A stretch of 42,422 bases of DNA from a virus (IMGVR_UViG_2534682157_000018), one strand, 5' to 3'. Counted from the first letter of the stretch, positions 13,614-35,111 are shown. A program made the numbers and translations. Notes: a model not told the origin generated them from the letters alone.

Positions 13614-13671
13614 ATTAGTACCTGGTTTAAGTCTTCCGACAGTTACGCTGCTCACCATCCGGATCGCAGCA

Positions 13672-13698: not shown

Positions 13699-13717
13699 GT
13701 TGTAATAAATGATTTAT

Positions 13718-14833: not shown

Positions 14834-16220
14834 TGATTTCCATCAGCATTACACTCTGATTTTTTAATTCATCGATCACTTCCTCTGGACGGGAATCCTG
14901 ATCGATAAATTTCAACGCCTGCAACACCCGAACCGCATCAATCTGACGTATATCACCGCCCTGACGCAATGACTGAACAGCCAGCGCGGAGGATGAGTCA
15001 AACACCTGGGCAGATACATCCAGTTCAGTGCGCACATCCACATTGCCACCGCAACTCTCTCCGATCCATTCCGCCATTATCTGGAGAATATTATCGAGGG
15101 CATCTTCGAGGGAGTTCGCCATTGTATAAAGCGGCGAGTTTTCCTGCATTCGCTCTTCATTAGTCTGATCAACAGATTTGGTGGATGTATTTTCAGCACG
15201 CAGAAGTTTAGCGCCGGCATGACGCATCTGATTTTCCAGCTTCTCAAGTGATGTTTCGCCAGATTCTATCGCTGCGCCACTATGTTCAACATATTCGAGG
15301 CCATTTTTTGTTCTGTCCTCAAAAATCGTAGCGGTGGATGCACCAACCGTCAGTTCTTCATTCCTGTCCAGCCCGTAGGCCACCAGCAATGGAACGCGGG
15401 TAACATGAAGAATATTGTCCTGCTCGCTCTGGCTTTGCCAGTGCTTGATATTCAGCAAGCCAAGATTAAGCAATGGCGGTGTACCACGCATAAATCCTGT
15501 TTTCTTCGTGTACAGTGTTACCAGAGGAATATCATCACGGCTGGTATTCCATGACTCATGAAGCGTCCAGACAGATTCGCCATTAGTGCCTTCGCTACGT
15601 CGATAAATTTCAACTCGACGGGGCATAATATGGCGGATCTGCTCCACCTTCTTCTGCCCGAAATCATCACCATCAATAATGATGACCTCTTTTATACGCA
15701 AATCAGTGAGAACAACTTTCCCTTTTTCAACTTTCGATTTCCATCCAATAACCTGGCGTGGATTCAGCATCGTAACGTACGGACGACCACCGGTCGCGTT
15801 TTCATCGGCTTTTGTACGAATCTCTTTCATATCCGTTCGTGGATAGTCCACCAGCGCATGTGCCACACCATACTGAAATGCGAGGCTGAAAAATTGCTGC
15901 GCCCACACATCCAGTCGGCTCCCCTCCATGTCGATATTTTCTGCATATTCCCTGATTTTTGCCGGCGTTTCCTCACTCAATACTGTCGGCTCTGCAAATA
16001 TGCGCCCAATATTTTGCTTGATGCTTTCTTCATACACAGGAAGTAGCGTAGCCACAGACAGGCGTTTTTTATAAGCGTCTTCATCTTCGTTAGGCCATTT
16101 TGGGAGATAATTTTCCCCCTGCCTGCGCATTTCAAGCGTACCGCCCATCAGTGCGTCGTTAATATCCCACGCCTCCAGCATATCGTTATAGTCGAGGTTG
16201 GGTGTTGATATATCAGCCAT
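14814..16220 (-). CDS. portal protein
   Basis: 468-aa ORF between terminase large subunit and MuF-like gene. Confidence 0.7.
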   Translation of the reverse strand: MADISTPNLDYNDMLEAWDINDALMGGTLEMRRQGENYLPKWPNEDEDAYKKRLSVATLLPVYEESIKQNIGRIFAEPTVLSEETPAKIREYAENIDMEGSRLDVWAQQFFSLAFQYGVAHALVDYPRTDMKEIRTKADENATGGRPYVTMLNPRQVIGWKSKVEKGKVVLTDLRIKEVIIIDGDDFGQKKVEQIRHIMPRRVEIYRRSEGTNGESVWTLHESWNTSRDDIPLVTLYTKKTGFMRGTPPLLNLGLLNIKHWQSQSEQDNILHVTRVPLLVAYGLDRNEELTVGASTATIFEDRTKNGLEYVEHSGAAIESGETSLEKLENQMRHAGAKLLRAENTSTKSVDQTNEERMQENSPLYTMANSLEDALDNILQIMAEWIGESCGGNVDVRTELDVSAQVFDSSSALAVQSLRQGGDIRQIDAVRVLQALKFIDQDSRPEEVIDELKNQSVMLMEINDANRE

Positions 16221-16222
16221 AA

Positions 16223-17533
16223 TTAAATCCGAAGTGATGTGACTCTTCCGGTCGGTTTGACAATAGGGAATTGCTTAACGATGAAATAACCTCCGGCATC
16301 ATTCGGGTGATCATTGCCAGATTTTTTATCAGGCTCCCCCTTCTCATCCCAGACCTGTTGCTCCAGAGATTCGGCATATAACGGGCAACGCTTCACATTA
16401 ACTTTATAGCGACGCTCACCATTGGCATTGCAGAACATTGCATTCATTGAGTTAACGCGATCTTTTACTGGCGGGTTCGAGCTGTTCACCACAACGTTAA
16501 AACCAGCCTGCTTAAGCTGGGCTATATCCGTCGTACTTGCGTTACTTGATTTTCTGGAATCCCCGGAAGCATCTGGATAAATATAAATTTCCCTCACTTT
16601 CCGGTAATCATTCCCATCATACAGCCAGAAGCGTTCTTTAATGATGCGGATCATATCCGGCGTATCGTAGGCATTGATGATTTCAGTTACCGCACATGGA
16701 AGCCCCAAACGCAGCACATGGACGATTCCCGCCATCTTTCCAACGTTAAAATCCATCCCAATATAAATCGGCTCCCCTGGCTGCTCCACTTCTTCGCAAT
16801 TATTCAGTTTCCGGTCAAACTGATGGTAAACAGTACCACTTGTCAGGTTAGTAAACTGTCCTCGAAGATAGGCTTTAATCAGCTCTGGAGGGTATGATTC
16901 AAGAAGCGAAGGAATGTAATCTGCTGGCAGGTTCTTTTCATTATCGAAAGTAGATGCCTGCACCAGACCATACAGTGAGGCCAGCTCTGTTTTTTCACGC
17001 ACGGCTTTAACAAACTGCTCGTAGACAAATTTGAATCCTTCCGGCGTGGTTGTAACGTCAATACCGTTGCGAAGTCCATCAATCTTATAACGCATACGTG
17101 CAATTATCTTGCGCCACGCCGTTCTGGCTTTTTCCTTCGGCAAAATGTCCAGTTCATCCACCAACGCATTACCAATTTTGAAACCGACGATCGTTTGTGG
17201 CTTCTCCATCGATCTGCAGATAGTGGTTCCCCGATACTGGCGTCCGTAATAAAAGTGAACCTCTTTATTTCCCTCATTAATTTTTACGTTCAATCCCCAG
17301 TCAGCAGCAACTTCTTCCACTGTAGGGTAAAAAATATCGCGAATTTGGGGATACGTTGGCGCAAAATATCCCTGATTTATACCTGGATGCTCCCAAATCC
17401 CCTTGCATATGCCGCCACACCCAACCCATGTTTTGCCCGAGCCAAAACCAGCAATATAGGCTTTAAATTTATGGGGCATTGAAAGAAATCGCGCCTGAGG
17501 CACATTAAGCGTCGGAGAGATCATCTTCATCAC
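16223..17533 (-). CDS. terminase large subunit
   Basis: 436-aa ORF with Walker A-like GFGSGKTW near N-terminus; upstream of portal. Confidence 0.75.
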   Translation of the reverse strand: MMKMISPTLNVPQARFLSMPHKFKAYIAGFGSGKTWVGCGGICKGIWEHPGINQGYFAPTYPQIRDIFYPTVEEVAADWGLNVKINEGNKEVHFYYGRQYRGTTICRSMEKPQTIVGFKIGNALVDELDILPKEKARTAWRKIIARMRYKIDGLRNGIDVTTTPEGFKFVYEQFVKAVREKTELASLYGLVQASTFDNEKNLPADYIPSLLESYPPELIKAYLRGQFTNLTSGTVYHQFDRKLNNCEEVEQPGEPIYIGMDFNVGKMAGIVHVLRLGLPCAVTEIINAYDTPDMIRIIKERFWLYDGNDYRKVREIYIYPDASGDSRKSSNASTTDIAQLKQAGFNVVVNSSNPPVKDRVNSMNAMFCNANGERRYKVNVKRCPLYAESLEQQVWDEKGEPDKKSGNDHPNDAGGYFIVKQFPIVKPTGRVTSLRI

Positions 17534-18599
17534 TCCTTACTCTGGCATCAACCACATTAATATTGATCGCCACAGGCTGGGGATGTTCATTATCTTCCAC
17601 CGTTTCGATCTCTTTGCGCAGCTTCTGGTTTTCCATTCTGCGCCGTTCAATTTCCAGTTCCTGTAGCCGTTTATCTGCACATAAAGCCCCGTCAGCAGAA
17701 AACAAACGCAACAATTCACGCCGGGCGGCAGCCTTATCCTCCAGCAGGATCTCAACGCCGAATTTTCCGAATTTTGCCCCTGCATATAATTGCCGCGCAT
17801 CCCCATCAAGCAGAGTGGTATCAGCCATATAAAGCTGTCCCGTTCCCTCACCGCAGCACTTCGGGCAGTCCGGATTGGGTATGGCGTTATCAACAAAGCC
17901 GAGGCCTCCATATTCCGGTTCGGGTTTGCCATCTCTGGAAGCCTGCGCCGCTGCCTTGTCGAATTCTGCTATATCGCGCCACTGGTAGAGATGATTCTCG
18001 CCCCAGCAATAACGGCAGTTAACACGGCGAAATTGTGCAAGCTGATTGGGGTCGGCCAGGACAATAGCCATCAACTGACTCACTAGTAAATCCAGGTCTG
18101 CGGTATAGCGTTTCTGGTACTGATTGCGGAAGTAGCTGATAGCGCGAAAAACCCTGGCATTTCTAAGCATACGACTGGCGTTGCTGTTAGCTGTCGCACC
18201 TTGCCCCTCATAACCGGCTAGTCGGTACGCCTCTGTCTGCTTTTTACCCTGAGCAACAAGCATCGCAAACTTAGCCTGCTGGTCAGAAATGCCGAATTCA
18301 TCGGGACAGAACGAAAATTCCTCCGCGTCGCCCTCATTCAGGCCCGCATCGAATACTGGCTTTTTTTCCTGAGATTTTTCGTTCCGCTTTTGTGCAGTCT
18401 GCGCAGATTTTTTCTGCGCACTTTTTTGCGCAGTTTTGCACATTTCTGTCTGCGCATTTTTCGGAGTTTTTTTGATGTAACGACGGGCTGTTGCGTAATT
18501 CAGTCCCCTTGCTTCACACCATGCCACCGGAGATATACCGGAGCGGGTGTATTCAGCAATATACTCCTGCTGCAACGCCCCCCAGTCCGGTCTGCTCAT
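17505..18599 (-). CDS. putative terminase small subunit / DNA-binding packaging protein
   Basis: 364-aa ORF with N-terminal HTH-like segment and Cys-rich region (CPKCCGEG); immediately upstream of terminase large subunit. Confidence 0.45.
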   Translation of the reverse strand: MSRPDWGALQQEYIAEYTRSGISPVAWCEARGLNYATARRYIKKTPKNAQTEMCKTAQKSAQKKSAQTAQKRNEKSQEKKPVFDAGLNEGDAEEFSFCPDEFGISDQQAKFAMLVAQGKKQTEAYRLAGYEGQGATANSNASRMLRNARVFRAISYFRNQYQKRYTADLDLLVSQLMAIVLADPNQLAQFRRVNCRYCWGENHLYQWRDIAEFDKAAAQASRDGKPEPEYGGLGFVDNAIPNPDCPKCCGEGTGQLYMADTTLLDGDARQLYAGAKFGKFGVEILLEDKAAARRELLRLFSADGALCADKRLQELEIERRRMENQKLRKEIETVEDNEHPQPVAININVVDARVRSDEDDLSDA

Positions 18600-18602
18600 C
18601 AG

Positions 18603-18854
18603 TTAGTCCTGATTTTTATCCACCCTGAGTAGTTCGCGCAGAGCAAAGGCATCCCCTTTTCTGGCAAGCTTAAACAATGCCGCTCGTAACTCGGCTTCAC
18701 CTTTCGCTCTGCCCTTACGGATGGCCGCATAAAAATCTGTCATTGCTTCCCGATTTTCTTTCAGTCGGTTCAGATCAACATCCAGAACGTCAGCGATTTG
18801 TTGTGCAGTCATCCGGCACGCTGCCAGAGACTCGACTTTCGAATACGGAATCAT
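18603..18854 (-). CDS. hypothetical small protein (possible HTH)
   Basis: 83-aa ORF ending 4 nt before the putative terS start. Confidence 0.35.
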   Translation of the reverse strand: MIPYSKVESLAACRMTAQQIADVLDVDLNRLKENREAMTDFYAAIRKGRAKGEAELRAALFKLARKGDAFALRELLRVDKNQD

Positions 18855-19743
18855 TTGTCACCCCCATTGATATGCAGGGTGTCTTCTTCCTGTATTTTTC
18901 GTGAAGGATTTTTACTGCAGCGTTGTTCCAGGTGACCTGATGGTGAATGCGTTTATGGCTGGCACCCATCAGTGAGATTTTTACGCACGACGGCGCATAC
19001 ATGACGGAGTAAAAACTTTTAACGTAGGTTCCGGAATCCAGATACAGCTCGGTCATTCCGCCGCTGTTTTTCTGCGTCTGTTTCTGCCCTAACTGGACAG
19101 CACCGATCGTCATAAACAATTCACCACAGCGACCGAGATTCGTGTACGTATTCACATCCTCGTTAATGCGCCCCATGAATGAGAACGGTCGATCAACCGA
19201 ACAGATAAAGCTGTTCATTGCCTTGCGTTTCACCCACGAAGCATGGCCGCCATTGTCACCAAGAAAATCCCCGCCCTGCGACATAGCGATGGAAAGAGCA
19301 GGTATTGATTCGTAGTACGCCAGCATTTCAGAAAGGATCGCATCCAGTTTCCTTATCGGAAAATAGGCCTGGTCATAGTTGCGATCCACCCGAAACTGGA
19401 ACTCGTGATAATCATCATCGAGCTGAATGAAGTATTTACACCCGACCAGTTTTGCCAGGTCGAAACAGGCATTACGGGCGTAAAAAATTGAGCGGCGGTC
19501 ACAGAAATTATCGGCTTCGTCAAAACGACTGGCGATATCGGCTTTGGAAAACACCAGCACCTGTTCACCAAATTCAGCCATGTACTGATTCCGTGTCTTA
19601 TCTTCATCATCAACAACGATAAAAATTTTCCCGGTATAGCCAGCACGACGCAACGTCCGGTAAGTCAGAACTTTGTCCGGTCGCCCGTGAGTCAGAATAA
19701 AGGCGCAAAAATCATCACGCATATTCCTCCTCCTCACCACCAT
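18790..19743 (-). CDS. GT-A fold (family-2-like) glycosyltransferase-like protein
   Basis: N-terminal AFILTHGRPDKV...KIFIVVDDED resembles the GT2 pattern and FIQLDDDY resembles a DxD motif; overlaps the stop of the ParB-like gene. Confidence 0.45.
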   Translation of the reverse strand: MVVRRRNMRDDFCAFILTHGRPDKVLTYRTLRRAGYTGKIFIVVDDEDKTRNQYMAEFGEQVLVFSKADIASRFDEADNFCDRRSIFYARNACFDLAKLVGCKYFIQLDDDYHEFQFRVDRNYDQAYFPIRKLDAILSEMLAYYESIPALSIAMSQGGDFLGDNGGHASWVKRKAMNSFICSVDRPFSFMGRINEDVNTYTNLGRCGELFMTIGAVQLGQKQTQKNSGGMTELYLDSGTYVKSFYSVMYAPSCVKISLMGASHKRIHHQVTWNNAAVKILHEKYRKKTPCISMGVTNDSVFESRVSGSVPDDCTTNR

Positions 19744-20506
19744 GCATGATCTCCACCATGCGCTGCGTCATCCGGACAAATCCATTTTCAATAGCCTGCT
19801 GATAATCAATGATCACCAGCGCCGACTCCTCGAAAAAACACTGAATTTCAGAGGGGGCGTGAGCGTAATAGTCCGCAATTCTGCTGAAATTAAACACCGT
19901 GTGACGTTCTGCCGCACACAGGAGGAATTTCTCAATATCAGGCTCAAGGGACGCCGAACGTATCCGGCTGATCAGCTCCTGAGTTTTCGTATCGTCGTAC
20001 AGTTCACTGATATCCGGTTTACCGCCCGACGGCTCATAAACAGGCGTATCAATTTTCGTCGTATACGGCTCCTCCTCATTTCCTGTACCGGGCAAAACAT
20101 CCGTCAACAGTTCATCAATTTCTGTCGGGATGAAGCCTGTCAGGGAGACATCAAAATCAGCATTGATTAGGTCCGACAGCTCCATCCGCAACAGATCTTC
20201 ATCCCAGCCAGCATTCATCGGCAGGCGATTATCTGCCAGGCGGTACGCCTTTTTCTGCTCATCCGTCAGGCCAGACAGAACAATGACCGGAACAGAATCC
20301 ATTTTGAGCATTTCAGCCGCCATAACACGACCGTGACCCGCAATAATTTCGCCCTTTTCGTCAATCAGCACCGGATTAGTCCAGCCGAATTGCTTAATAC
20401 TTTCTACCAGTTGTGCCACCTGCTCAGGGCTGTGCGTCCTGGCGTTGTGCGCATACGGTGACAATTCTTGTAATGGGCGATAGACTATCTTTAATTTCTC
20501 GCTCAT
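19715..20506 (-). CDS. ParB-like nuclease domain protein
   Basis: 263-aa ORF with ParB N-terminal-like motifs (...NARTHSPEQVAQLVESIKQFGWTNPVLID...GHGRVMAA). Confidence 0.65.
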   Translation of the reverse strand: MSEKLKIVYRPLQELSPYAHNARTHSPEQVAQLVESIKQFGWTNPVLIDEKGEIIAGHGRVMAAEMLKMDSVPVIVLSGLTDEQKKAYRLADNRLPMNAGWDEDLLRMELSDLINADFDVSLTGFIPTEIDELLTDVLPGTGNEEEPYTTKIDTPVYEPSGGKPDISELYDDTKTQELISRIRSASLEPDIEKFLLCAAERHTVFNFSRIADYYAHAPSEIQCFFEESALVIIDYQQAIENGFVRMTQRMVEIMHGGEEEEYA

Positions 20507-20530
20507 ACAGCCTTGCTTTATGAATAAAAC

Positions 20531-20558
20531 GCACCCCAGCAGCCAGTGCTACTGGGGA
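20531..20558 (-). terminator. hairpin downstream of trkG-like gene (possible terminator)
   Basis: CCCCAG-N12-CTGGGG inverted repeat; flanking U-tract weak. Confidence 0.25.
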
Positions 20559-20643
20559 CGGAGGGGTTGCTGGTAAAGTTAGGTATTGGATCAATGAGTG
20601 AGTCAACATAATATTAAACTCACAATTATAAATCAGCCATATA

Positions 20644-22117
20644 TTAGGAGCGCCAAAAAAAACCTGAAAACAATATAATAACAGGATAAATTTCAAGGCG
20701 ACCAAGAATCATAGCTATGCACATTAAACATTTTGCAATGTCATTAAGCACTCCGAATGACGATGCAGTAGCCCCAAAACCTAATCCCATATTATTAATA
20801 CATGCAGCCACTGTTGCAAATGATGTAAGAAAATCATATCCCATACCATTTAACACCAGTATAAAAAACACCGTGAAGAGAGTATAAAGAAAAAGAAACT
20901 CCATACAGACCTCATTACACGATCTGTAACTATCTTCCCTCCTACATTTACACTCAACAACGCTCTGGGATGAGAAAGCTGATTTATCTCGTGTTTGCTT
21001 TGTTTGAAAAGTATAAGAAATCGAAGTGACTTAATTCCACCACAAGTTGAACCTATACATCCCCCAAAGAAACTTGACAACAGCAAAAACACTATCGTGT
21101 GCGTGGGCCAACTTGCATAATCCTGCGTAGCTAAACCATTATCAGTGAGCATGGAGCTGGCAAGAAAAACGAATGAATAAAACTTCCATGCAAGTCATAC
21201 ATACCTATATGCCAGACCTGGAAAGAGGTAACAATGATCACCCCTAAGGCTATTAACAGAAAGAAACGAAGTTCAATATCTCTGATTAAAGGTTTTATCG
21301 TTTTCCTGCTAATAACAATATACCAAAGAGTGAAGTTGAAAGCCGATAGCAGGGAAAAAGAACCAGCCACCAGCTCAACCAAATAGTTATTAAAATATCC
21401 GATACTCTCGCTATGAGTTGAGAAACCACCAAGCGAAACTGTGGAAATCCCGTGACAAATAGCATCAAACAAAGGCATTCCTGCAAGTCTATAACAGACA
21501 ATACAAGCAATACCTAATAAAGAATAAGTTATCCACAGTGTCCGTGACGTATCGGCCAGGCGGGGAGTGAGTTTGTCATCCTTAAATGGCCCCGGCATTT
21601 CTGACTGATAAAGCTTTGCACCACCAATACCCAATAATGGCAATACAGCAACCGCCAGAACAATAACTCCTAAACCACCTATAAAATTTAACTGTGACCG
21701 ATAGTACAAATATTCCCGAGGTAATGAACTAACATCATCAATTACAGTTGCTCCTGTTGTTGTTATTCCAGAAACCCCTTCAAACAGAGCATCAATGAAC
21801 GTTAAATTAAGTTCTGAGTCAATCCATAAAGGGAATGCACTAATAACAGAAAACAAAATCCAAAACATTACAATTATAATAAACCCATCACGGGTACGTA
21901 ATTGAATGCCAGATTTCTTAGTTGTATACCACGCTCCGCCACCAATGCAAAAAAATATAACGAAAGTTATAAAGAAAACGAACAGGCTTTTTTCTTTATA
22001 AAACAATGCTACAACCATTGGTGGCAACATTGAAAGACTATAGAGCCAAACCAGGAACCCACACATATGAGTAACAACTCTTACATGAGATGTATTCATA
22101 TCTAAATATTCTTTCAA
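20644..22117 (-). pseudogene. trkG: TrkH/TrkG-family potassium uptake protein, read in three frames
   Basis: N-part 21131..22117 is TrkG-like; fragments 20850..21152 (GGCIGSTCGGIKSLRF...) and 20644..20904 (...GRLEIYPVIILFSGFFWRS) continue it in shifted frames; an A5 run (21165-21169) lies at the first junction and a T3-C-T5-C-T3 tract at the second (20887-20897, near 20900). Confidence 0.7.
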
Positions 22118-22236
22118 TTATAACCACCTTGCTGCAATATTATGATTATACTGTATAAAATTTAACTCCTCTTAGATCTTACTTCACTGTTCCTTATGAA
22201 ACAATCATCAAAATGAATCATATTGTAGTTAAGATT

Positions 22237-22701
22237 TTACTTTAAACACTGCTCGGTTATGTATTGCTGAGCACCTTCAAGTTGGGCCTGCATCATTACC
22301 AGTCGTTCCCGGAGGGTGAAATAATCCCGTTCAGCGGTGTCTGCCAGTCGGGGGGAGGCTGCATTATCCACGCCGGAGGCGGTGGTGGCTTCACGCACTG
22401 ACTGACAGACTGCTTTGATGTGCAACCGACGACGACCAGCGGCAACATCATCACGCAGAACATCATTTTCAGCTTTCGCATCAGCTAACTCCTTCGTGTA
22501 TTTTGCATCGAGCGCAGCAACATCACGCTGACGCATCTGCATGTCAGTAATTGCCGCGTTCGCCAGCTTCAGTTCTTTGGCATTTTTGTCGCGCTGGGCT
22601 TTATAGGTAATGGCGTTATCACGGTAATGATTAACAGCCCATGACAGGCAGACGATGATGCAGATAACCAGAGCGGAGATAATCGCGGTTACTCTGTTCA
22701 T
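22237..22701 (-). CDS. Rz: spanin inner-membrane subunit Rz
   Basis: Translation [41 protein letters not shown]... is near-identical to lambda Rz from memory; ATGA overlap with endolysin stop. Confidence 0.85.
22296..22481 (-). CDS. Rz1: spanin outer-membrane lipoprotein subunit Rz1 (embedded in Rz, +1 frame)
   Basis: 61-aa [27 protein letters not shown]... with lipobox and proline-rich region; fully inside Rz. Confidence 0.8.
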
Positions 22702-23195
22702 TGCTGACCCCACAAACAGATTTCACGCTCAATCTCACGACGAGTCATGAGACCTTTCCATTGCTTACCGCCAGCATATGTCCAGCGACGTAGCTGATCA
22801 CATGCGCCTTTGATATCGCCCTGGTTTATTTTGCGAAGAAGCGTCGATGTTCTGAAATTGCCAGCACCCACGTTGTAAACGAATGAGTAAAGAGCGCCGC
22901 GCGTTGTTTCCGGTATATCGACTTTGATGTACGGGTTAATTTGTCTGGCGACCGTGGCAAGGTCTTTATTCAGGAGGGCTTTGCATTCTGCTTTGGTATA
23001 CGTTTTACCGAGCATGATGTCTTTTCCTGTATGCCCGTGACATACAGTCCATACACCAACAATATCTTTGTATGGTATGTAGCTGACACCTTCCAGACCA
23101 TCGTTACCACTTGGGCCAGTGATTAACACTGATGCTATAGCAATTGCTCCGCCACCAATAGCAGCAGCAACGACTTTTCGTAATGATGGAGGCAT
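22698..23195 (-). CDS. R: SAR endolysin (phage 21 R-type lysozyme)
   Basis: 165-aa ORF with Gly/Ala-rich N-terminal signal-anchor-release segment ([18 protein letters not shown]); matches phage 21 R as I recall it. Confidence 0.85.
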
Positions 23196-23410
23196 TATTC
23201 ACCTCTCGCAGCCTTGCGCTTATCTTCTTTAATCTTGAAATAAAGGTTTGTCAGGTACGTCAGCAGGCCAAATACCAGACTACCCAGCACACCGATTGCA
23301 GCCCACTGTGACGGAGTTACTCTATCGAGCAACTGTAAAAACCAGTAGCCAGCACTGCCTGCGGAGGTGCCGTAGGCAATGCCTGTTGAAATTTTGTCCA
23401 TGGATTTCAT
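23195..23410 (-). CDS. S: pinholin (phage 21 S-type), dual-start motif M-K-S-M
   Basis: [26 protein letters not shown]...[17 protein letters not shown] resembles S21 68/71 from memory; strong GGAGGTGA RBS; overlaps endolysin start. Confidence 0.85.
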
Positions 23411-23510
23411 AGCCTCACCTCCGCACGGAACGGATGGCATAGTTATTATGTGTAGGCTTTCAGACACATCAATCAGAGCCTTAATTGATATATATGCTGG
23501 AGACGATGCA

Positions 23511-23536
23511 ATATAAAAAGCTCGCCGTAGCGAGCT
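23511..23536 (-). terminator. intrinsic terminator between lipoprotein gene and holin
   Basis: On minus strand: AGCTCGC-TACG-GCGAGCT stem-loop followed by T5. Confidence 0.45.
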
Positions 23537-23661
23537 AATAAAATGTATTTCTCTGATATTATGTTTATTTGTATTAGCTCAGACTTGACATCACAGGTTT
23601 CGTATATAGAACATCATCAAATCTGTCAGTTTGCTATGAATGAGATATAGTAATTGAAGAG

Positions 23662-24057
23662 CTAACCTCGCATGTCAAAGCCAGATTTCTGAAAATCTCT
23701 GTAGACTTCCGGATTGTTAAAGGCCGGAAATTTGGCTTTATGAGCTGCGGACTTTATCGCTTCGCAATAGGCTTTATCACCGTTACTGGTAGATATTTTT
23801 AACGCCGTGCCATCCTGAGAGAATTCCATATGCAACCTGCATTTTTTCCCTTTCCAGTTATGCGGCTCATCAAGTTTGGCATTAATTGCAGCTCTGATTC
23901 CCCGCGCTTGCGCCCCCCATTCATCCTGATCATCCCAGCGTCCTGAACTGCAACTACCTGTAGCAGTAGTTTTGTGGCAATCTGAAGGGTGTAAAGGTGT
24001 GCATCCCGCAACAAAACCGACCCAAAAAGTCAACATAACGATTTTCTTTAATCCCAC
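23662..24057 (-). CDS. putative lipoprotein (moron, paralog A)
   Basis: 131-aa ORF with signal peptide and lipobox FVAGC; C-terminal half homologous to the neighbouring lipoprotein. Confidence 0.6.
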   Translation of the reverse strand: MGLKKIVMLTFWVGFVAGCTPLHPSDCHKTTATGSCSSGRWDDQDEWGAQARGIRAAINAKLDEPHNWKGKKCRLHMEFSQDGTALKISTSNGDKAYCEAIKSAAHKAKFPAFNNPEVYRDFQKSGFDMRG

Positions 24058-24207
24058 TTCTTGCTCCTCAATCCATTAAAATCTCAGCAATAGTAGTTGT
24101 TACGTCCGCCACTGGCTCAGAGCTGACTATCCGCTAAATTTAGCTCAGTGCCGTAGCTGTGTCAGAACAAACCTAAGCCGAAACCGTTTATTACAAAACA
24201 ATAAATA

Positions 24208-24636
24208 TCAGGGTTTAAAATCCAGCACCCCATTTTGAAATACTTTATATACTTCCGGCGAAGGGGGGGCAGGTATATCAGCATTCTTTATCGCATTCAT
24301 CGCTTCACGACATAAATCGAGGTCTCCACTTTCTCTTTTAACCTCCAGTAGAAGGCCATTCGGGGCCATATGCATTCTCAGTGTACACTCTTTTCCTGAA
24401 TACTTACTCGCATCCCCGAACTGTTTTTCGATGGCGCTCTTGATTTGATGGGCATACAGACGGATATCCTCACTAACATCAGAAGTACGTTCAGATGAAC
24501 TCACATACTGTGTCTCTATTGCTTTATCGGAGTAATATGATGTACGGTCATGATAATTTGTCGATACAGCATCAGTGCACCCGATAATAATCCCACTAAT
24601 AATCAACGTAAGAATTGATGCGCTACGAAAACCCAT
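24208..24636 (-). CDS. putative lipoprotein (moron, paralog B)
   Basis: 142-aa ORF with lipobox IIGC; shares the C-terminal motif set with paralog A. Confidence 0.6.
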   Translation of the reverse strand: MGFRSASILTLIISGIIIGCTDAVSTNYHDRTSYYSDKAIETQYVSSSERTSDVSEDIRLYAHQIKSAIEKQFGDASKYSGKECTLRMHMAPNGLLLEVKRESGDLDLCREAMNAIKNADIPAPPSPEVYKVFQNGVLDFKP

Positions 24637-25224
24637 TTTTCCTCACATATGTCATATAGTAAAGGATTATATATACCGTTGTTTTGGACGCTCAAACAGC
24701 GAATCAGATCAAATAAAACGCACATTTGTTAACATTTACACAAAGTCTGCGTGGGATATTCTGAAAGAATATCCATAATGTGGAGAGAATCTATTGAAGT
24801 GCATGGTGCCGGGTGCCTCCCGGTGAACAAAATGTTCGTGATACCTGTCGGCGACAGAAAAGGTTAATGGTATCACCCCACCGCACAGGGGGATTCACCA
24901 TGCAGGAGTTTTCTTAGCAAACTCACTGCGCGCCCGGCAACTCCCAACCACATAAAATGCGGAGTTTGTGGTATTTATGCATATAACTCGCAGGAATTAT
25001 CTTAAAAAACTGATGTCGATCCGGATTAAAAAGAAGCAGGTCATCATCAGATGACTGGAAAAAAGGAAACAAAAAATACTCATCATACAGTTTTGATTGC
25101 AGGGATGAGCCTGCTATGCACAATATGCAGAATATAAGCAAGATAAAAATATGCAGGCATATTATTTCGGATTTTGTTATTAACACAACCTTTTTAATAA
25201 TCATTTGGCATACAATAAACCAGC

Positions 25225-25252
25225 CCAAAAAGAACCGCCTAAACAGGCGGTT
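25225..25252 (-). terminator. intrinsic terminator (candidate tR'-like) downstream of Q
   Basis: On minus strand: AACCGCC-loop-GGCGGTT stem followed by CTTTTTGGG. Confidence 0.5.
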
Positions 25253-25572
25253 GGTCAATACAAAGGATGCTTCGTCTTTATTATAGTAATCTGAGGCGTC
25301 GGGTGTCTTGTATCAGACAACATATTGTCCCGCTAAACAGCGAATTACAAACCACCCTGCAATGATCTCTCATCTCATTTTATATGAGTTGACGACATCA
25401 GGATAACGCATCATCAGCCCCTGCCAAGAAATATCAAAACTCCCGCCAGCAATGTGTTATCACAATATTGTAAAAAAAACACAGCACCGAAACTATAACT
25501 GGTCTCTGTTATAATTTGGAGCAGAAAGACCAGTTGCCCAACTAGCAGCATTCTCCCCTGCTTTCCTGACGT

Positions 25573-25599
25573 AAAAAAACCGCATTAAGCGGTTTTTTT
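25573..25599. terminator. bidirectional intrinsic terminator about 80 nt downstream of Q stop
   Basis: A7-CCGC-ATTAA-GCGG-T7: symmetric stem-loop with A-run on one side and T-run on the other. Confidence 0.6.
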
Positions 25600-25679
25600 A
25601 CGATGTCCATGTCTGCAATCCGCCTCGCGATACAGCTTTGCGAAGCATAGCAAAATTGAAGCAGTTTATACGTAAGAAA

Positions 25680-26222
25680 TCAAGCCATTTTCTCAGCAAA
25701 TGATTCACGCATGGGAATATATAGGGCATACTCAGCAACAGCTAACCAATTAGCAATCCGTTTTTCGCATGTGCTAAAACACCACTCTGGGTGTGCATCA
25801 TTTAGCAATTCAGCCATTTTGCGCTTAGTCATCCCCCGCCCTTCATAGCGTTGCCGGAGAATGCAAATCAATCCTGGATGCTCTGCCAGCACCTCACTTA
25901 TGACTCGATCAATACATAACGCCTCTGCATCAGTACAATGCGCCAGCCAGCTCTTTTGCTTGCCGTTGATCATCTCTCGCAAAAACGCTTCCAGCTCAGC
26001 TTTCTCTATTCCCGCTTTTTTCATTCTGCGCAGGGCTTCATTAATGGCTGTTTTCGTCAGTTTTTTGGATGCCAACAACTGATTGAACATATTCCCTGAC
26101 CTGCCACCGCCAATATACGACCAGCGCCCCCACATACGTAGTTTTCCCTGAATCCAGACACTTTCCAGCGTGGTGAGGCGAAGGTGTTCTCCGCTTTTTC
26201 CTGTATTCGTTGGATAAATCAT
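25680..26222 (-). CDS. Q: late-gene antiterminator Q-like protein
   Basis: 180-aa ORF directly upstream of terminators and lysis cassette, downstream of nin-type genes; assignment mainly by synteny, family not verified. Confidence 0.55.
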   Translation of the reverse strand: MIYPTNTGKSGEHLRLTTLESVWIQGKLRMWGRWSYIGGGRSGNMFNQLLASKKLTKTAINEALRRMKKAGIEKAELEAFLREMINGKQKSWLAHCTDAEALCIDRVISEVLAEHPGLICILRQRYEGRGMTKRKMAELLNDAHPEWCFSTCEKRIANWLAVAEYALYIPMRESFAEKMA

Positions 26223-26509
26223 AAATGACCTTTCTTTCTCCAGATTTCTTGTGTGCGAAAAACCCCTTCAGCATGCATCAGGCGCAATTCTTCTTTGGTG
26301 TAATCGCTGGTTTTTACCCGCCCGTCGATTAGATCGTGGCATGAGCTACAGGCTATCGCCGCCTGCATATCGTGTGGTTTTGTCGCTGTTCCGCACGTCC
26401 CCGCCAGCCTGTAATGCGCCAGCACAGAGGTTTCGGGATTGTGATTGCAGTAGCCAGGGATTCTGATCTGGCACATCTGGCCTTTAGCCGCTTTACGTAA
26501 ATTCACCAT
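26219..26509 (-). CDS. YbcO-like (DUF1364) putative nuclease
   Basis: 96-aa ORF with CQIRIPGYCNHNPETSVLAHYR and Cys/His cluster resembling DLP12 YbcO from memory. Confidence 0.65.
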   Translation of the reverse strand: MVNLRKAAKGQMCQIRIPGYCNHNPETSVLAHYRLAGTCGTATKPHDMQAAIACSSCHDLIDGRVKTSDYTKEELRLMHAEGVFRTQEIWRKKGHL

Positions 26510-27108
26510 TACGCAAACTCCAGTAGTTGTGCGGCCACATTTTCAACTTCCTCCTGAGAGGAGAATTTACGGAACAGAATCCAGTTCCACAGCACATTCA
26601 GTACAGATTTATAAACCTGCTGAAACTCGACTTCGTCCATATTCGCAAAAGCGATGGATTTTGCCCGACGCCCACGGCTACCGTCCGGATAAAAATGTTC
26701 GGTGTAAAATCCAGCCTGAATGGTTACCCACTCGCGAAAAGCCTCAAACGACTTTAGCAATGCCGTATCCCGGGTTCTGCGTGTCGCAACTGTGTTCAGA
26801 TATTGCTCTGCGGCATCACTCAGGGCTGGCGTGTGTTCCCGACCAACTGATTCGCACAGGTAATCAACGAAACCAGACAGCAGTTCTCGTTCGCGAGGCG
26901 TGATCGCCCCACCGACCGGAGTCCAGTAATCGAATCCCAGTTGCAGGAGTTTGAAAAAACGCTTGTGGAATGCGTAGTTACGCACACGCTTAAAGTCTGC
27001 GTGTATCCACTCACCTATTTTGATTTGATGCAGAAAATCGCAACTCTCCGGCGTCGCCGGGAGAAGTAAACCAGAAGAAGTTTGTTTGACCAGTTGTATA
27101 TGCGCCAT
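26509..27108 (-). CDS. nin-region protein (DUF1367-like)
   Basis: 199-aa ORF with 4-nt coupling to the downstream gene; family from memory only. Confidence 0.45.
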   Translation of the reverse strand: MAHIQLVKQTSSGLLLPATPESCDFLHQIKIGEWIHADFKRVRNYAFHKRFFKLLQLGFDYWTPVGGAITPRERELLSGFVDYLCESVGREHTPALSDAAEQYLNTVATRRTRDTALLKSFEAFREWVTIQAGFYTEHFYPDGSRGRRAKSIAFANMDEVEFQQVYKSVLNVLWNWILFRKFSSQEEVENVAAQLLEFA

Positions 27109-27574
27109 TTCTCAATCTCTCGATGGCGCAGTGCAGCAGATGCCAGTTGTTCAGGCTGACGTATAAAGTATAAATAAACTGGTTCCAGTGTAAAGCCCCC
27201 ACCTTAATGGAATAAAAACCAAACAACAGATTGCTGGGATACAAACAACGCTTATTATTAAAAGCGGTTAAACAAATTAAATTTTAATGTTATGCAAATC
27301 TACCAGATCACCATAATATCTCATTTGAAAACCACTGAAATAACAACCCTATCAGGATTAATCATATTAAGGTGAGTAAATATGGAAAACAACAAATCTG
27401 CACATTACGCTCCTTTTTTATCTGTAATACTTTTTGTTTTATGCTGTGCGTGGGCATTATTTTTATAAAAATATTTACAGATAAAATAAACCCGCCAAAG
27501 CTGGTTAAGTGTGGGTGCGTTGAGGATGCATAATACATCAGAGGTGGCGAGGGATTTCTCCCTCGCCCGGTCTC

Positions 27575-27787
27575 TTACTCCTCAGGTTCGTAAGCTGTGA
27601 AGACAGCGGCCTCCGTCTGCCCGGTTCGGATTCGTACCTCGCAGAGGTCTTTCCTCGTTACCAGTGCCGTCACAATGACGGTTAAACAGATGACGATCAG
27701 GGCGATTAACATCGCCTTTTGCTGCTTTATAGCCTGCTTCTCCTTGCCTTTCGGCACGTAAGAGGCTAACCTACATGTGCAAAGCAT
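27575..27787 (-). CDS. hokD: Hok-family type I toxin (HokD/RelF-like core), maximal ORF with N-terminal extension
   Basis: C-terminal 45 aa MLIALIVICLTVIVTALVTRKDLCEVRIRTGQTEAAVFTAYEPEE is near-identical to E. coli HokD/RelF from memory; the codon where I recall the HokD start Met is ATA here; an in-frame ATG at 27787 has a GAGG 8 nt upstream. Confidence 0.8.
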   Translation of the reverse strand: MLCTCRLASYVPKGKEKQAIKQQKAMLIALIVICLTVIVTALVTRKDLCEVRIRTGQTEAAVFTAYEPEE

Positions 27788-27941
27788 GAAATTGGCCTCA
27801 GATTAATGTTAAGCGTCTTGCCGGACGCGTAATGTTAACTGGGGCTTTTCTCTATCTGCCTTTGGTGTTCATGCCCGAGGCAGATAGCCTCAAGCACCCG
27901 CAGCAATTCTACTTAACTCCCGTCACCTCGCCAATATAAAA

Positions 27942-28031
27942 TCAATCAGAAAGGCGATCCATAAGAACAACAGCAAGACAATAAATTGCTATTACAGCAG
28001 CAATAGCCAGCGCACATTTGAGAACCAGCAC
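27942..28031 (-). CDS. candidate small hydrophobic peptide (29 aa)
   Basis: AGGAGG 5 nt upstream of GTG start; translation (M)LVLKCALAIAAVIAIYCLAVVLMDRLSD is one predicted TM helix plus an acidic tail; below ORF-track cutoff. Confidence 0.35.
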   Translation of the reverse strand: MLVLKCALAIAAVIAIYCLAVVLMDRLSD

Positions 28032-28356
28032 GACAACCTCCTGTATTGGACGCACACCAGTCCTGATAAATATGAGGCTGTCTCGTCAGTGATTCAATAC
28101 AACTATTGGGTATAGTTTATCTATTTTTCTTTGGCAATGGAACACAACAGCCAAACATAACCAACACTTCTTCAGATGTATTAAGTCAGGCCCCAACCAG
28201 CATTTTGAGTAAGCAGTTCACTCAAATATGACTATCTGATTTGAGCGACGTGCGAACATTTACGATAGCTTCACTATGATTGGTACATTCTGCAATCTCT
28301 TTGTCTCAGAAAGTCGAAAGTAGCTTAAGCTATATTATCAAGAGGATAATCATCAC

Positions 28357-28389
28357 ATTGAAGGTCGATACGTTACCTTCAATGTGACA
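28357..28389 (-). other. 11-bp perfect inverted repeat about 10 nt downstream of the NTPase stop
   Basis: CACATTGAAGG-N11-CCTTCAATGTG; no clean U-tract on the minus strand, so it may be a stability or regulatory hairpin rather than a terminator. Confidence 0.35.
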
Positions 28390-28398
28390 ATCTATTTA

Positions 28399-30655
28399 TT
28401 ATTGAATTTGCAGGTTTGTACGTAAGGAACCTGTAGATTCCTCATATAACTTAGATATATAATTAGACATATCATGGTTACTTCGTACTTTTTTATTGAA
28501 TTTTTTCAGGTACTTATCAACCGTAGTGCTAAGTAGCCCTGAGTCGTCTGTAACGTGAGTTATCCCTAAATTAATCAAAACACCTAATTTATTTTTTTCC
28601 ACTAAGCTATCAAATGCGGATTTATCCCCGAGCTCATTCAGTGTTGATGCTATGAAGAAACGTGCATAATCAATATGTTCACCAATTTCCTCATATTGTT
28701 CAATTTGAACTGACAAGTCTTCCAAGGCAGATTTGAAAAAATCATATGCGTAATTGTTACTTAAACACTTTGTGAAAATACAAAGAAGAGCTACTGGTGA
28801 AAACTCCTTCAGCGGGATGTCGGTATTTCCCTTGAGAATATCAACATATAATTTACCTGCATCTATATATGATAAAAAGACTCCCCTCGTTATTTTTTTA
28901 TACGGAGTTAGATATGAAGCCAAATAAAAAGAACCGTTATAAAATAACCTTAAAAATCTTGTTTTATCGTTACTAGGTTTAAGTTCATTAATTTTATCAA
29001 TAAGATATTCATTGTCTCTTAACAAACCAAAATAGAAGAAATAACTATTTGCCCAATAAATATCATAAATATTATCATTTATGTCTATTAGGCCACGCTT
29101 CCTAAGTCCTTCAGCGTAAAAATACTCCATGAATGATCTGTGTAGAAATGAGAACGTATTACTTCTAACATTAACTGTTGTTACTTCACTGCGATAAATT
29201 AGTCTTTTGAAAAGTTTGTCCTCATCAACATTCAAGTTTCTTTTGGCCAAATAATTTAAAAACATGTCCTGCACTTCTGAAATTGATATGCAGTTTAGAG
29301 AGTTATCCATCATAAATATCGCAATTTCTACTAATATATTACTTATTACATCATATTCTGTTTGCGATAATAATCCCTTAGATGTATCCCATCGTCCCAA
29401 TACTATCTCACTGTATTTTGAGTATAGTTCTGTCATTGTAGATGGTAATTCTTTAATCTCATCAGAGAGTATTCTTGCCAGAAGAATAGCGCTCACTGGA
29501 GTCCTGGGAATGAACTTAAATAGTGGTGTTTTTCTATACCATTTTTAAGTTTATTTGTTATTTTAATGTCATTGCAGATTTTATCTACAAAGTCGATTAT
29601 TTGACCTGTGCTAAGTGGTATTATCGAGTATCTTGCAAACATCTGATCGATAACTTCATAGTCCTGAAGAGAATCCATAATTCTTGAAGCAACTAGTAAT
29701 CGAATTTTATCATTCCTGGATACTTTCTCTACAATGTCCCTGAAATTGTTTTGCCTTTCCTCAAGTGATTCCTTTACTTCATCCACCGAATCAACAATTA
29801 ATAAAATATTCCCATCATGTTGTATTTTGTACTTACTTAACACACTTTGTATTATATTTTCAACATTAAGTTTTTTTCTAGAACATCCTTGTATTGACAA
29901 AATACTGGAAGGATGTAGTCTTTTTCGTAAGAATATTCTTCTTTTATTTTTCTAATTAACTGTTTCAGCAAAGTACTTTTCCCAGAGCCAACGGTTCCCT
30001 CTAAAAAAATAAATCTCTCGGCTCTCACAACACTATACAGTTTTAACGGCCTGTGTCTGCGTTTTTTATGATCTTCCTTGCTTACATATCTATCAATAAG
30101 GTTATTTATGCCAACACTACCAAAAAAAGAGCTTTCAGGTGTATCACTTATAGTTTGCAATGTATCTGTTAAGTATTGTTCATAATTAATGGATTCGAAA
30201 TCCCAAAACTCTGGGTAATATTTACTGATTAAAGAACATATTTTTTCACCCTCTATAAATTTTATATTTGTAGATTTGAATTTCAAGTAAATTTTTTCTT
30301 GAGCATTATTTGAGATCGATGAATTAGTAATAACCCAAATTTCATTCAAATGTATGTTCTTAGAGCCAGAAGAAATAAAGCGTGGATATAATTGACACTC
30401 TTCTATTTGTCGTTCAACCTCACTATTTGACTGAATTATCTTTCCAACTTTACAAATAACACCAATATATATTTCCTCGTCTAATGCCTCATCTCGTTTA
30501 ATTATGACAAAATCAGCACCTTTTTCTGATGGTCCTTGCTTATATTCAACATGTGTAACAGTCGGCAAACGTGGTAGAAGCGCTCTTAGCACTGGATGGA
30601 AATCATCAACCTCACGTTGCAATGATTCTATTTTTCTTAAGTATTCTGGTTTCAT
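28399..30655 (-). pseudogene. NACHT-type STAND NTPase with N-terminal Mrr-like (PD-(D/E)xK) domain, read in three frames (29852..30655, 29493..29900, 28399..29496)
   Basis: Walker A GTVGSGKST at the end of the first ORF; Walker B LLIVDSVDE and LLVASR motif in the second; N-terminal GADFVII...EIYIGVICK resembles an Mrr catalytic core; junctions at T7 (29871-29877) and T5 (29529-29533); visibly AT-rich. Confidence 0.65.
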
Positions 30656-30682
30656 TTGTTTACCTTAAACAGTATCCAAAAA

Positions 30683-30721
30683 AATCATTTTATATAACAA
30701 TCATATTTCATACAATGTCAA
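30683..30721 (-). promoter_or_regulatory. candidate sigma70 promoter for the NTPase gene
   Basis: Minus strand TTGACA, then 17-19 nt, then TGTTATATA (extended -10-like), about 30 nt upstream of an AAGG RBS and the start at 30655. Confidence 0.35.
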
Positions 30722-30756
30722 CTATTAGACTCTTTTTCAACATTATAAACCTATTA

Positions 30757-31101
30757 TCAAAGACTAAGGCGACGGATTTCTCCGTCAGGTAATGACCAGA
30801 TAAGGTCAGGATCAACCACAACCGGTTTCTTCACCTTTGCCCTTGATAGTTTTTTGCGGGCGTTTTGCCAGTCTTTACGAACCTGTTCTGAGGGAAATAA
30901 CCCGTAACCAGAGTTGTATACATCACCGCTCGCAACCAATTCTCTGGCAAGAAGGTTCATCAGATATCTTGTCGCACCTGTCTTAGCTTCCAGTTGTCGT
31001 AACGTCTCGCGCCCACTCTGGCGCACGAGTTCAACAACCTGCCCTTTAATTTTTTCCCGCCCTTCTTGTGTAAATACTTTTGCCATAAGCGCCTCCGGCA
31101 A
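30757..31101 (-). CDS. hypothetical protein (114 aa), possibly DNA-binding
   Basis: ORF immediately after the 270-aa gene; basic C-terminal tail. Confidence 0.4.
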   Translation of the reverse strand: MPEALMAKVFTQEGREKIKGQVVELVRQSGRETLRQLEAKTGATRYLMNLLARELVASGDVYNSGYGLFPSEQVRKDWQNARKKLSRAKVKKPVVVDPDLIWSLPDGEIRRLSL

Positions 31102-31914
31102 TCACTTTTCCGATACAATACGGCGGGAAGAATCCGTAATCTGTCGAACAATATCCCGGTGCTTGTTCAGCTCCCGCAGCGCGGCGCAGACTCGCTCCCA
31201 CTTCTGGACATGACTTTTCGCCCGACGCAATTCGCGGTTTGCCATATGCAGCGATGGTAAAACCAGGTCATCCGCTCGCGTTTCAGTAAACGATGGCAAC
31301 GACTGCACAATATCAGCCACAGTTTCTGTTTTAATATCTTCCTGTGTTGCAGCTTCCTGTACTGGTAACGCAACACCTGCTGGCTGAGGAAAGGCTTTAC
31401 CATCGGTTTCCGCTACCGATTCAACTTTCGGCTCTGCTGGTAAATTATCACCCGGTATGCAGTAACGAAATTTACCGTTCTGATTAATGCGAATCAGACG
31501 ACCTTTGCTGATAGCCATTGCCAGCGTTGAAGCCACTTTGCGTGATGTGGTACCGAACAATGTAGCCAACTCATCAGCCGTTTGTGGTCCGCGTTGTTCA
31601 ATCGTCGCGGTTAAATCGCACTCTGAGATTTTCGCTACTGTTGCTGTGGTGGTTTCTTCCGGCAGTTCTGCCTGCGCTGGCTGTTCCTGCTGAACGTTGT
31701 TATCAGCCACACGCCAGGTGTACGCGCTTTTATCAACAAAACCAGCCTTTTTCAGTTCCCATAGTTCGTTCAGCACTTCTTCACGACTGATATCAAGTCG
31801 CGCAGCAAGTTCTATGGATGTGGCTTTTCCCATTGCTTTCAGTGCGTCAAAAACAGTCTCCATTAAATTTTTCTCCCGGTAAAAATTACTTCGCAATTCC
31901 TGGCTGGACGACAT
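31102..31914 (-). CDS. hypothetical protein with N-terminal winged-HTH-like segment (possible YdaW-like)
   Basis: 270-aa ORF; likely start at internal Met ([30 protein letters not shown]..., about 31863); follows the DnaC-like gene. Confidence 0.4.
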
Positions 31915-32632
31915 TCGGACGCCAGCTCTCCCAGTTAAAATTCACCCATCGCCCGCCGTTCATGGTCATGCGATCCATAATCCGCTCGCCGAGCAATGTT
32001 TTCATGGCCTCATAGTTCAGGTTTGTCAGCATCCCCACGCTGCGCATCGACGCTGTCCGGCGATCAACAATCTGGTGCAGTACCACCTGCTCGTTTTTCG
32101 TCTCGCGCTGAATGCCAATTTCATCAAGAACCAGCAGATCCACTTCGCACAGTTCCCGCAAAAATTTTTCGCCTGACTGCCCATCGTCATAGCTGGCGTG
32201 CAGGGCACTCATAACATCAGCCACGGTAACCACAATCACTGTCTGACCGTCTTTCAGCAGGTGATTCCCGATAGCTGCCGCTAAGTGGTTCTTCCCGGTA
32301 CCAGGTTTTCCGCTGAACGCAAAATTTGTACACCCGGTCATCAGTTCATCAGCGATGGATTTCGCCTGACTCAACGCGTATCGCTGCCCTTCGTTCTGCA
32401 CCTGGTAATTCGAAAACGAGCATTTGCGGTGCAATGGCTGGATGCCAGAGCGATTCAGAATTTTTTCCACCCGCAACTGACGATTCTGACGGTTGATCTC
32501 CTCACAACGTTTCTGGCCTTCGGAAAGTTGCCACTCGCGCCACTCCGCTACCGTTTTGAATGGGGCGGTTACATGTGGCGGGGCCAGTCTACGGATACGT
32601 TCAAGAATGCCGCCTGCCGCAATATTTTTCAT
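31886..32632 (-). CDS. ydaV: DnaC-like replication protein (helicase loader)
   Basis: 248-aa ORF with [18 protein letters not shown] and DLLVLDEIG motifs; strong similarity to E. coli DnaC from memory. Confidence 0.8.
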
Positions 32633-32638
32633 GGTCAG

Positions 32639-33444: not shown

Positions 33445-33517
33445 AATTGCCCCGTATGATGCTGCCCGGTTGCTTAGAATAAGCACAAACAGCATGGAAA
33501 CTTTTGCTTAATGAACA

Positions 33518-34180: not shown

Positions 34181-34259
34181 ATCACCCTCACAATGTGAAC
34201 TTTGAGTACATGCTATAACAGAACTGACAGTACATTCAAGAGCGAATATCATTGAACTT

Positions 34260-35101: not shown

Positions 35102-35111
35102 GATTCGCAAA

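Follow-up and report, generated by a model that had tools for sequence, protein, structure and literature searches.

A phage-21-type pinholin and signal-anchor-release endolysin cassette in the late region of a Rac-family lambdoid prophage

Introduction

Full-size Rac-like prophages at the ttcA locus of Escherichia coli (Sp10, CP-933R and Rac-SA53) and the incompleteness of the Rac prophage of E. coli K-12 have been described previously (PMC4632033, PMC2669165, PMC5917428, PMC6379469). Which lysis genes, then, belong to a full-length member of this family, how is their expression controlled, and what has become of them in K-12? We address this question with a stretch of viral DNA of 42,422 nucleotides (nt) (IMGVR_UViG_2534682157_000018, hereafter the window, to which all coordinates refer), in which an initial annotation made from the sequence had placed a phage-21-type pinholin and signal-anchor-release (SAR) endolysin cassette at 22237-26222, within a Rac-type mosaic prophage. 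We conclude, with a probability of roughly 93%, that a full-length lambdoid prophage of the Rac family, integrated beside ttcA, has its late-control and lysis module in this segment.

Results

The lysis cassette

All genes of 22237-26222 are carried on the minus strand, and the lysis genes are intact and in canonical order (Table 1). The stop codon of S overlaps the start codon of R in the sequence TAATG, and the stop codon of R overlaps the start codon of Rz in the sequence ATGA. Judged by the similarity of its products to those of phage 21 (OL657228) and lambda (NC_001416), S-R-Rz/Rz1 is a phage-21-type pinholin/SAR-endolysin cassette with spanins of the lambda/21 type; the identities to S21 and R21, the Pfam assignments, the matches to the solved R21 structures and the sequence motifs set out below all agree with the initial annotation on this point.

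S is a protein of 71 amino acids with two transmembrane domains (TMDs). It is identical to S21 at 64 of 71 positions (90%), with residues 1-26 those of S21 and all seven substitutions conservative, and to EssD of the K-12 prophage DLP12 at 67 of 71. The match to PF04971, 'Bacteriophage P21 holin S', scores 120.9 bits (cutoff 26). The M-K-S-M dual start, which had been recognized together with the resemblance to S21, reads ATG AAA TCC ATG and is preceded by GGAGGTGAGG, with a GGAGG Shine-Dalgarno sequence. TMD1 (residues 8-26) is weakly hydrophobic (63% Gly, Ala, Ser or Thr; mean Kyte-Doolittle value of 0.22), and TMD2 (residues 36-57, mean hydropathy of 1.44) retains G40, S44 and G48.

R is identical to R21 at 163 of 165 positions (99%), and searches against solved structures returned R21 itself (PDB ID: 3HDE with E = 9.6e-111 and PDB ID: 3HDF with E = 4e-95, the inactive and active structures of this enzyme) and DLP12 RrrD (PDB ID: 4ZPU, E = 2.5e-111). 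The N-terminal SAR segment claimed for the endolysin is found at residues 8-26, with 58% Gly, Ala, Ser or Thr and a single change relative to R21 (A8V), and the catalytic triad E35, D44 and T50 is present in full. By analogy with R21, to which it is 99% identical, R would be exported by the Sec system, tethered to the membrane and activated upon depolarization.

The spanins are as close to those of lambda as to those of phage 21. Rz is identical to lambda Rz at 143 of 154 aligned positions (93%) and to phage 21 Rz at 141 of 154 (92%), while Rz1 is identical to lambda Rz1 at 55 of 61 aligned positions (90%) and to phage 21 Rz1 at 92%. The description of both as near-identical to the lambda proteins is thus accurate at this level, with the addition that phage 21 is equally near. 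The two start codons (22701 for Rz and 22481 for Rz1) are offset by 220 nt (220 mod 3 = 1), and Rz1 ends at 22296, still inside Rz. Cys99 and Cys152 of Rz are conserved, and Rz1 has a lipobox Cys20, a Cys29 and 10 Pro among its 41 mature residues, with the Cys positions of both proteins as in lambda.

Spanins this near to lambda could also be expected of a cassette working by the lambda route, in which a canonical large-hole holin frees a soluble, cytoplasmic endolysin. However, identity to their lambda counterparts is only about 20% for S as well as for R, S belongs to the P21 holin family (71 residues, two TMDs), and R carries a SAR segment and is 99% identical to R21. We regard operation by the lambda route as next to impossible and retain the assignment of S and R to the phage 21 type.

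Relationship to K-12 Rac

Alignment of the window to the K-12 Rac region (NC_000913.3, 1411899-1434958) gave four collinear blocks of 98.3 to 99.8% identity (Table 1). K-12 Rac is the layout of the window after three clean, illegitimate deletions, plus a swap of the immunity region. The first absent segment (window 22682-31413) holds a NACHT cargo gene, hok/sok, DUF1367, ybcO, Q, two TolA-like genes, S, R and the first 20 nt of Rz; the second (8695-20252) holds the rest of a ParB-like gene, the terminase, portal and head genes and the tail tube gene; and the third comprises everything to the left of 6935, namely most of H, followed by M, L, K, I and J. Both internal deletion junctions (22681/31414 and 8694/20253), which could be placed with single-base precision, have microhomologies of 2-3 bp. 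The initial annotation had stated that K-12 Rac lacks Q, S, R, terminase and head genes, and the alignment shows this to be correct.

On the early side, K-12 Rac shares with the window prophage its integrase, xis, ralR/RalA, recET, racC, kilR, sieB and ydaFG. The block that contains these genes is 99.3% identical to K-12, as anticipated for recET, kilR and sieB; it includes intR (41187-42422), an RalA small RNA match of 220 bits and a Pfam hit for SieB. The ttcA gene itself lies outside the window and follows intR in the closest genomes. The claim of a Rac-like racR is not borne out, as window 33936-34803 has no nucleotide match in K-12. The 139-residue repressor encoded in the window (34260-34679) is 36% identical to RacR over only 33 residues, corresponding to the helix-turn-helix stretch, and we could not detect significant similarity between the Cro-like protein and YdaS. 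The repressor has an HTH_3 domain only, is weakly DicA-like and is devoid of an S24 (LexA-type) peptidase domain. The immunity region (33926-34679) is heteroimmune to K-12 Rac, which still allows membership of the Rac family in mosaic lambdoids; a third immunity allele is carried by strains H7 and MS1679.

At the other end of the first deletion, Rz is 99.3% identical to K-12 rzpR at the nucleotide level, rzpR lacking the first ~20 nt of the gene, and the fusion YdaW of K-12 extends out of frame into what is left of Rz. The C-terminus of Rz1 (SGNDW) is that of K-12 Rac RzoR. By alignment, K-12 rzpR/rzoR is the stump of this same phage-21-type lysis cassette. The trkG gene begins 137 nt past Rz, directly downstream as in K-12 Rac, and an intact copy of it matches Pfam TrkH with E = 7e-138.

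We considered whether the cassette might instead be foreign to Rac, as a block derived from DLP12 or phage 21 that was joined to the prophage by an assembly error or by a recent, one-off recombination. The S-R-Rz segment is indeed 93% identical at the nucleotide level both to DLP12 essD-rrrD-rzpD and to phage 21, and PGAP gives the genes the names essD and rrrD. Against this origin, the order Q-TolA-S-R-Rz-trkG is contiguous in 431 complete genomes, K-12 Rac keeps the 3' part of this very Rz allele, with Rz1 (SGNDW), beside trkG at 99.3% identity, and the K-12 deletion junction falls 20 nt inside Rz. A foreign cassette is accordingly very improbable, and the lysis genes are best regarded as a resident part of the Rac-family late region.

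Mosaic structure

Alignments to K-12 Rac, phage 21 and lambda uphold the description of the element as a Rac-type mosaic prophage. Nucleotide sharing with phage 21 is limited to the tail tip (window 1-4328, 93%) and the lysis block (22247-23449, 92.8%). The phage 21 cassette has the same gene order, the same overlaps and the same M-K-S-M start. Upstream of S, however, the window has neither tRNA genes nor Q21 but a DUF1133-family Q and two TolA-domain genes, downstream of Rz it has trkG where phage 21 has bor, and the C-termini of its Rz and Rz1 are of a Rac-specific allele, unlike those of phage 21.

Sharing with lambda at the nucleotide level is limited to the tail tip and to Rz/Rz1 (93.6%). 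Among the tail genes J/I/K/L/M/H that had been called lambda-like, the label suits J (98% protein identity over the part present), K (96%), L (93%) and I (78%), but M (42%) and H (26-36%) are distant. No similarity to the lambda V, U, Z, G, T, head or terminase proteins could be detected in the window, and lambda S, R and Q are unrelated (~20% identity). Downstream of the lysis genes, the genes for terminase, portal, scaffold, capsid, tube and tape measure form a full set; the head module comprises a capsid of the P22 coat family, a portal with DUF4055 and a large terminase small subunit.

The essD-rrrD-rzpD/rzoD genes of K-12 DLP12 belong to the same cassette family (S 67/71, R 163/165, 93.3% at the nucleotide level); DLP12 differs in lying at argU, in having quuD as its Q, and in the flanks of the cassette, where nmpC is the upstream moron and borD the downstream gene. 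Rac-SA53, from an LT-II enterotoxigenic E. coli (KU052037), has the early region and the DUF1367-ybcO-Q block in common with the window, but carries toxin morons (eplBA, eltII) in the slot occupied here by the TolA-like genes, together with another holin/endolysin set and another virion module; only 22% of the window is shared at the nucleotide level. Sp10 and CP-933R, which are Rac-like prophages of O157:H7 (compared by description only in the case of Sp10), share the ttcA site, recET, ydaTUVW, DUF1367-ybcO-Q and a slot for morons that separates Q from the lysis genes, as does Rac-SA53.

The Q antiterminator and candidate late-control elements

The gene at the upstream end of the segment matches Pfam DUF1133 (E = 2.5e-107) and PHROG 753, 'anti-termination protein Q-like'. 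Its product is ~18% identical globally to Q21 and Q-lambda, and its match to PF06530, Phage_antitermQ, is borderline (26.1 bits, cutoff 26). The sequence match to the solved structures being weak, we turned to a comparison of folds, with the Q21 family represented by PF06530 and PDB IDs 6P18 and 6JNX. A Foldseek search of the PDB with an AlphaFold2 model of Q placed Q21 chains at all of ranks 1-9 (probability of 1.0, template modeling scores of 0.49-0.65), the hits from rank 10 on having probabilities below 0.1. Q thus probably belongs, as a distant relative, to the structural family of Q21. These being the only meaningful PDB matches of the model, they also suggest that DUF1133 as a whole may be a divergent branch of that family.

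A hairpin with a 14-bp stem lies ~85 nt past the Q stop codon; the stem is present in both the minimum-free-energy and the centroid folds, and the region has a z score of -3.8. The block containing it is conserved in the otherwise divergent Q region of Rac-SA53. We propose it as a candidate tR' terminator, a function assigned from its sequence and position.

Between Q and the first TolA-like gene, a cmscan search identified an STnc100-like element, with 86.6 bits where the gathering score is 47 (E = 2.4e-17), which may form the 5' leader of the moron unit described below. An open reading frame (ORF) of 111 amino acids at 24923-25258 was rejected as a gene: it has no Pfam or PHROG hits, is created by a homopolymer deletion at 25066, and splits into ORFs of 70 and 54 amino acids in intact relatives.

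Distribution and homopolymer deletions

Of 5,426 complete E. coli genomes, 431 contain, at high identity, no less than 80% of the 4.6-kb segment 22000-26600, and 687 contain no less than 80% of the left (virion) half of the window. The closest relatives are E. coli prophages at the ttcA locus, with intR, xisR, ralR, recT, recE, racC, kilR and sieB on one side of the module and trkG and a full virion module on the other; an identically annotated module is found at ttcA in strains H7, MS1679 and CFSAN061771. RefSeq labels its products as EssD, RrrD, lysis protein and RzoD. The lysis module is in this sense already known: it is ordinary, widespread and already annotated in Rac-family prophages.

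Compared with the closest genomes, the window differs by substitutions at 0.1-0.4% and by 12 one-base deletions (Table 1), all of them in A/T runs of 4-9 and with no insertion. Nine of the 12 shift the frame of seven genes, namely those for the tape measure (6215), the tail tube (8901), the scaffold (13487), trkG (20889 and 21164), NACHT (29528 and 29870), ydaU (32986) and ydaT (33722). The deletions spare Q, S, R, Rz and Rz1. Because of their uniform direction and their A/T-run context, we take the 12 deletions to be probably homopolymer under-calling by the sequencer and not biology.

If the deletions were real, the prophage would be a decaying, non-viable Rac relic, and the lysis cassette a leftover or a domesticated function (for example, in the explosive release of cell contents). 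Nine frameshifting deletions as read would fit such a relic, and decay is common in the Rac family, as in K-12, in an IS1-truncated copy in H7 and in the annotated pseudogenes of MS1679. Moreover, Rac-like Sp10, whose repressor has no peptidase motif and which is not inducible by mitomycin, showed spontaneous excision and low-frequency transfer but no visible particles (PMC2669165). Yet every one of the 12 events is the loss of a single A or T from a run of 4-9, without any insertion, in coding and non-coding sequence alike and twice within one cargo gene; this is the signature of homopolymer under-calling, not of selection-blind decay, and substitutions amount to just 0.1-0.4%. We therefore consider a relic unlikely and continue to read the segment as the late-control and lysis module of a full-length prophage.

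No observation speaks against the identification itself, but several points qualify it, or bear on the ability of this particular copy to fire. A phmmer comparison of Q with Q21 recovered only the N-terminal motif, below threshold (E = 0.27), and the AlphaFold2 model of Q, built with 20 homologues, is of only moderate confidence (predicted local distance difference test score of 66.6). A consensus scan between the Q stop codon and the hairpin (25597-25571) detected no late promoter pR' or Q-binding element, and no pause element could be placed; a hand-picked candidate in this interval, TTGATT-17-TTCAAT, does not keep its spacing in Rac-SA53, and we claim no promoter. As read, frameshifts affect replication and virion genes. 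Finally, we found no record of virions of this exact prophage type, the matching 'phage' entries being prophage extractions.

Two sets of such entries were considered and rejected as virion evidence. SPF_0923 (ON032529.1, 'Salmonella phage') contains the chromosomal genes sitABCD, uspF, ompN and nifJ, and the vB_EcoS-xxxRn entries come from a survey of prophages of clinical isolates. ON032529.1, a public 'complete phage genome' that matches the left half of the window at 98.6% identity, is thus a prophage-plus-flank fragment and not the genome of a virion.

With regard to completeness, the initial annotation had called the prophage apparently complete. We do not draw this conclusion for the window, which begins inside J, contains no lom, stf, tfa or att sites, and has the frameshifts listed above as read.

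TolA-domain lipoprotein genes between Q and the lysis genes

The segment also holds two genes for TolA-domain lipoproteins that went unmentioned in the initial annotation. Residues 55-142 of the first product are identical to residues 334-421 of E. coli TolA (PDB IDs: 1S62, 3QDP and 1TOL) at 52 of 88 positions (59%), and the protein has the lipobox IIIGC. The second product, a paralogue that is 29% identical to the first, has the lipobox FVAGC and would be 124 amino acids long if the ATG at 24036 were used. With a promoter-like site upstream (24695-24666) and a terminator-like hairpin downstream, the pair has the appearance of a moron. Of the 5,426 E. coli genomes, 776 carry it, but a single one of 50,697 phage records does so, and the section of the query that covers the 131-amino-acid gene has a match of 87% nucleotide identity on pO157-type plasmids.

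TolA domain III is bound by, among others, group A colicins, through their translocation domains, and g3p of filamentous phages. We speculated that the two lipoproteins could act as periplasmic decoys that make the lysogen tolerant to such ligands, or could perturb Tol-Pal and so aid late disruption of the envelope; we offer both roles tentatively, the decoy as a plausible one, and rate them as less likely than not. PADLOC returned no defence-system hit for the TolA-like genes, and a search of the papers at our disposal found no description of a TolA-like decoy role. The pair is the least textbook feature of 22237-26222.

Other genes flanking the module

Between trkG and the terminase genes, the minus strand carries a full-length ParB-like nuclease gene, of which K-12 ynaK is the N-terminal stump, and an ORF of 317 amino acids (together 18790-20506); the best PHROG label of the latter is 'beta-glucosyl-HMC-alpha-glucosyltransferase', and RefSeq calls it hypothetical. 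On the other side of Q, between the cargo region and DUF1367-ybcO-Q, lie a hokD-type toxin gene and a match to the sok antisense RNA (115.8 bits) at 27575-27899, also on the minus strand.

The cargo gene (28399-30655, minus strand) encodes a NACHT/STAND NTPase of 752 amino acids, has a GC content of 32-35% and matches Pfam NACHT and NCH1; two homopolymer deletions split it into three ORFs in the window. It is likely to be an anti-phage NLR-like gene, and no specific PADLOC model matched it. Other Rac prophages have an MFS/GGCT/LysR/DUF2254/BCCT cargo block at this position.

Table 1. Features of the late-control and lysis module, segments aligned to K-12 Rac, and one-base deletions in the window.
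Feature	Coordinates	Strand	Basis or remarks
Q, DUF1133-family late-gene antiterminator (probable)	25680-26222	minus	Pfam, PHROG, fold comparison
Candidate tR' terminator hairpin	25571-25597	minus	Sequence AAAAAAACCGCTTAATGCGGTTTTTTT; GC core flanked by an A-run and a T-run
STnc100 small-RNA-like element	24747-24933	minus	Rfam cmscan; upstream of first TolA-like gene
Moron-like gene 1, TolA-domain lipoprotein, 142 amino acids	24208-24636	minus	Pfam TolA C-terminal, E = 2.4e-23
Moron-like gene 2, TolA-domain lipoprotein, 131 amino acids	23662-24057	minus	Pfam TolA C-terminal, E = 1.3e-14
Terminator-like hairpin at the end of the moron unit	23519-23536	minus	AGCTCGCTACGGCGAGCT then TTTTTATATTG; ~110 nt upstream of S
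Class II pinholin/antiholin S	23195-23410	minus	PF04971, E = 2e-35; S71 start at 23410, S68 start at 23401
SAR endolysin R, GH24 T4-type lysozyme	22698-23195	minus	Pfam Phage_lysozyme, E = 1.3e-45
i-spanin Rz	22237-22701	minus	Pfam PF03245, E = 2.3e-53
o-spanin Rz1	22296-22481	minus	Within Rz, +1 frame; Pfam PF06085, E = 2e-19
trkG cargo gene	20644-22099	minus	Alignment to intact trkG of NZ_CP097719 and NZ_CP042896
Block aligned to K-12 intR to ydaG	34804-42422		99.3% (99.27%)
Block aligned to K-12 ydaT to 5' part of ydaW	31414-33935		98.3%
Block aligned to K-12 rzpR, rzoR, trkG, ynaK	20253-22681		99.3%
Block aligned to K-12 ydaY, ynaA (tape-measure remnant)	6935-8694		99.8%
One-base deletion sites	6215, 8901, 13487, 20889, 21164, 25066, 28123, 29528, 29870, 32986, 33722, 35981		

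Discussion

How would this module work? Because its proteins are near-identical to characterized ones, the established pathway of phage 21 and lambda is the best explanation. We infer the individual steps from those systems and apply them to a locus whose gene identities, order, overlaps, motifs and relationship to K-12 can be read directly. After derepression, a late promoter immediately past the Q gene would be the site at which Q, with its DUF1133 domain and Q21-like predicted fold, loads onto RNA polymerase. The modified polymerase would then pass both the hairpin terminator ~85 nt away and the terminator of the moron unit, transcribe S-R-Rz/Rz1, and go on to trkG and to the genes for packaging, head and tail.

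The S mRNA would give rise to two products, the pinholin S68 from Met4 and the antiholin S71 from Met1, and the additional Lys2 of S71 would make TMD1, which is weakly hydrophobic, leave the membrane later; S71 would delay triggering. Meanwhile R would be exported by the Sec system and accumulate in an inactive form, with its Gly/Ala-rich SAR segment as the tether to the inner membrane. At the programmed time, pinholes formed by S68 would collapse the membrane potential, upon which the SAR segment would leave the bilayer and R would refold to an active muramidase (E35/D44/T50) and degrade the murein. The complex of Rz in the inner membrane and the lipoprotein Rz1 in the outer membrane would then disrupt the outer membrane.

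Two practical points follow for work on this prophage. Since its repressor is without an autocleavage domain, mitomycin C is a poor test of its viability, and given what is probably a systematic homopolymer-deletion artefact, gene calls across the window need to be treated with caution. Beyond correct annotation the finding matters little. Its interest for the family is that the window is a full-length relative of the K-12 Rac fossil, and shows base by base how K-12 Rac arose.

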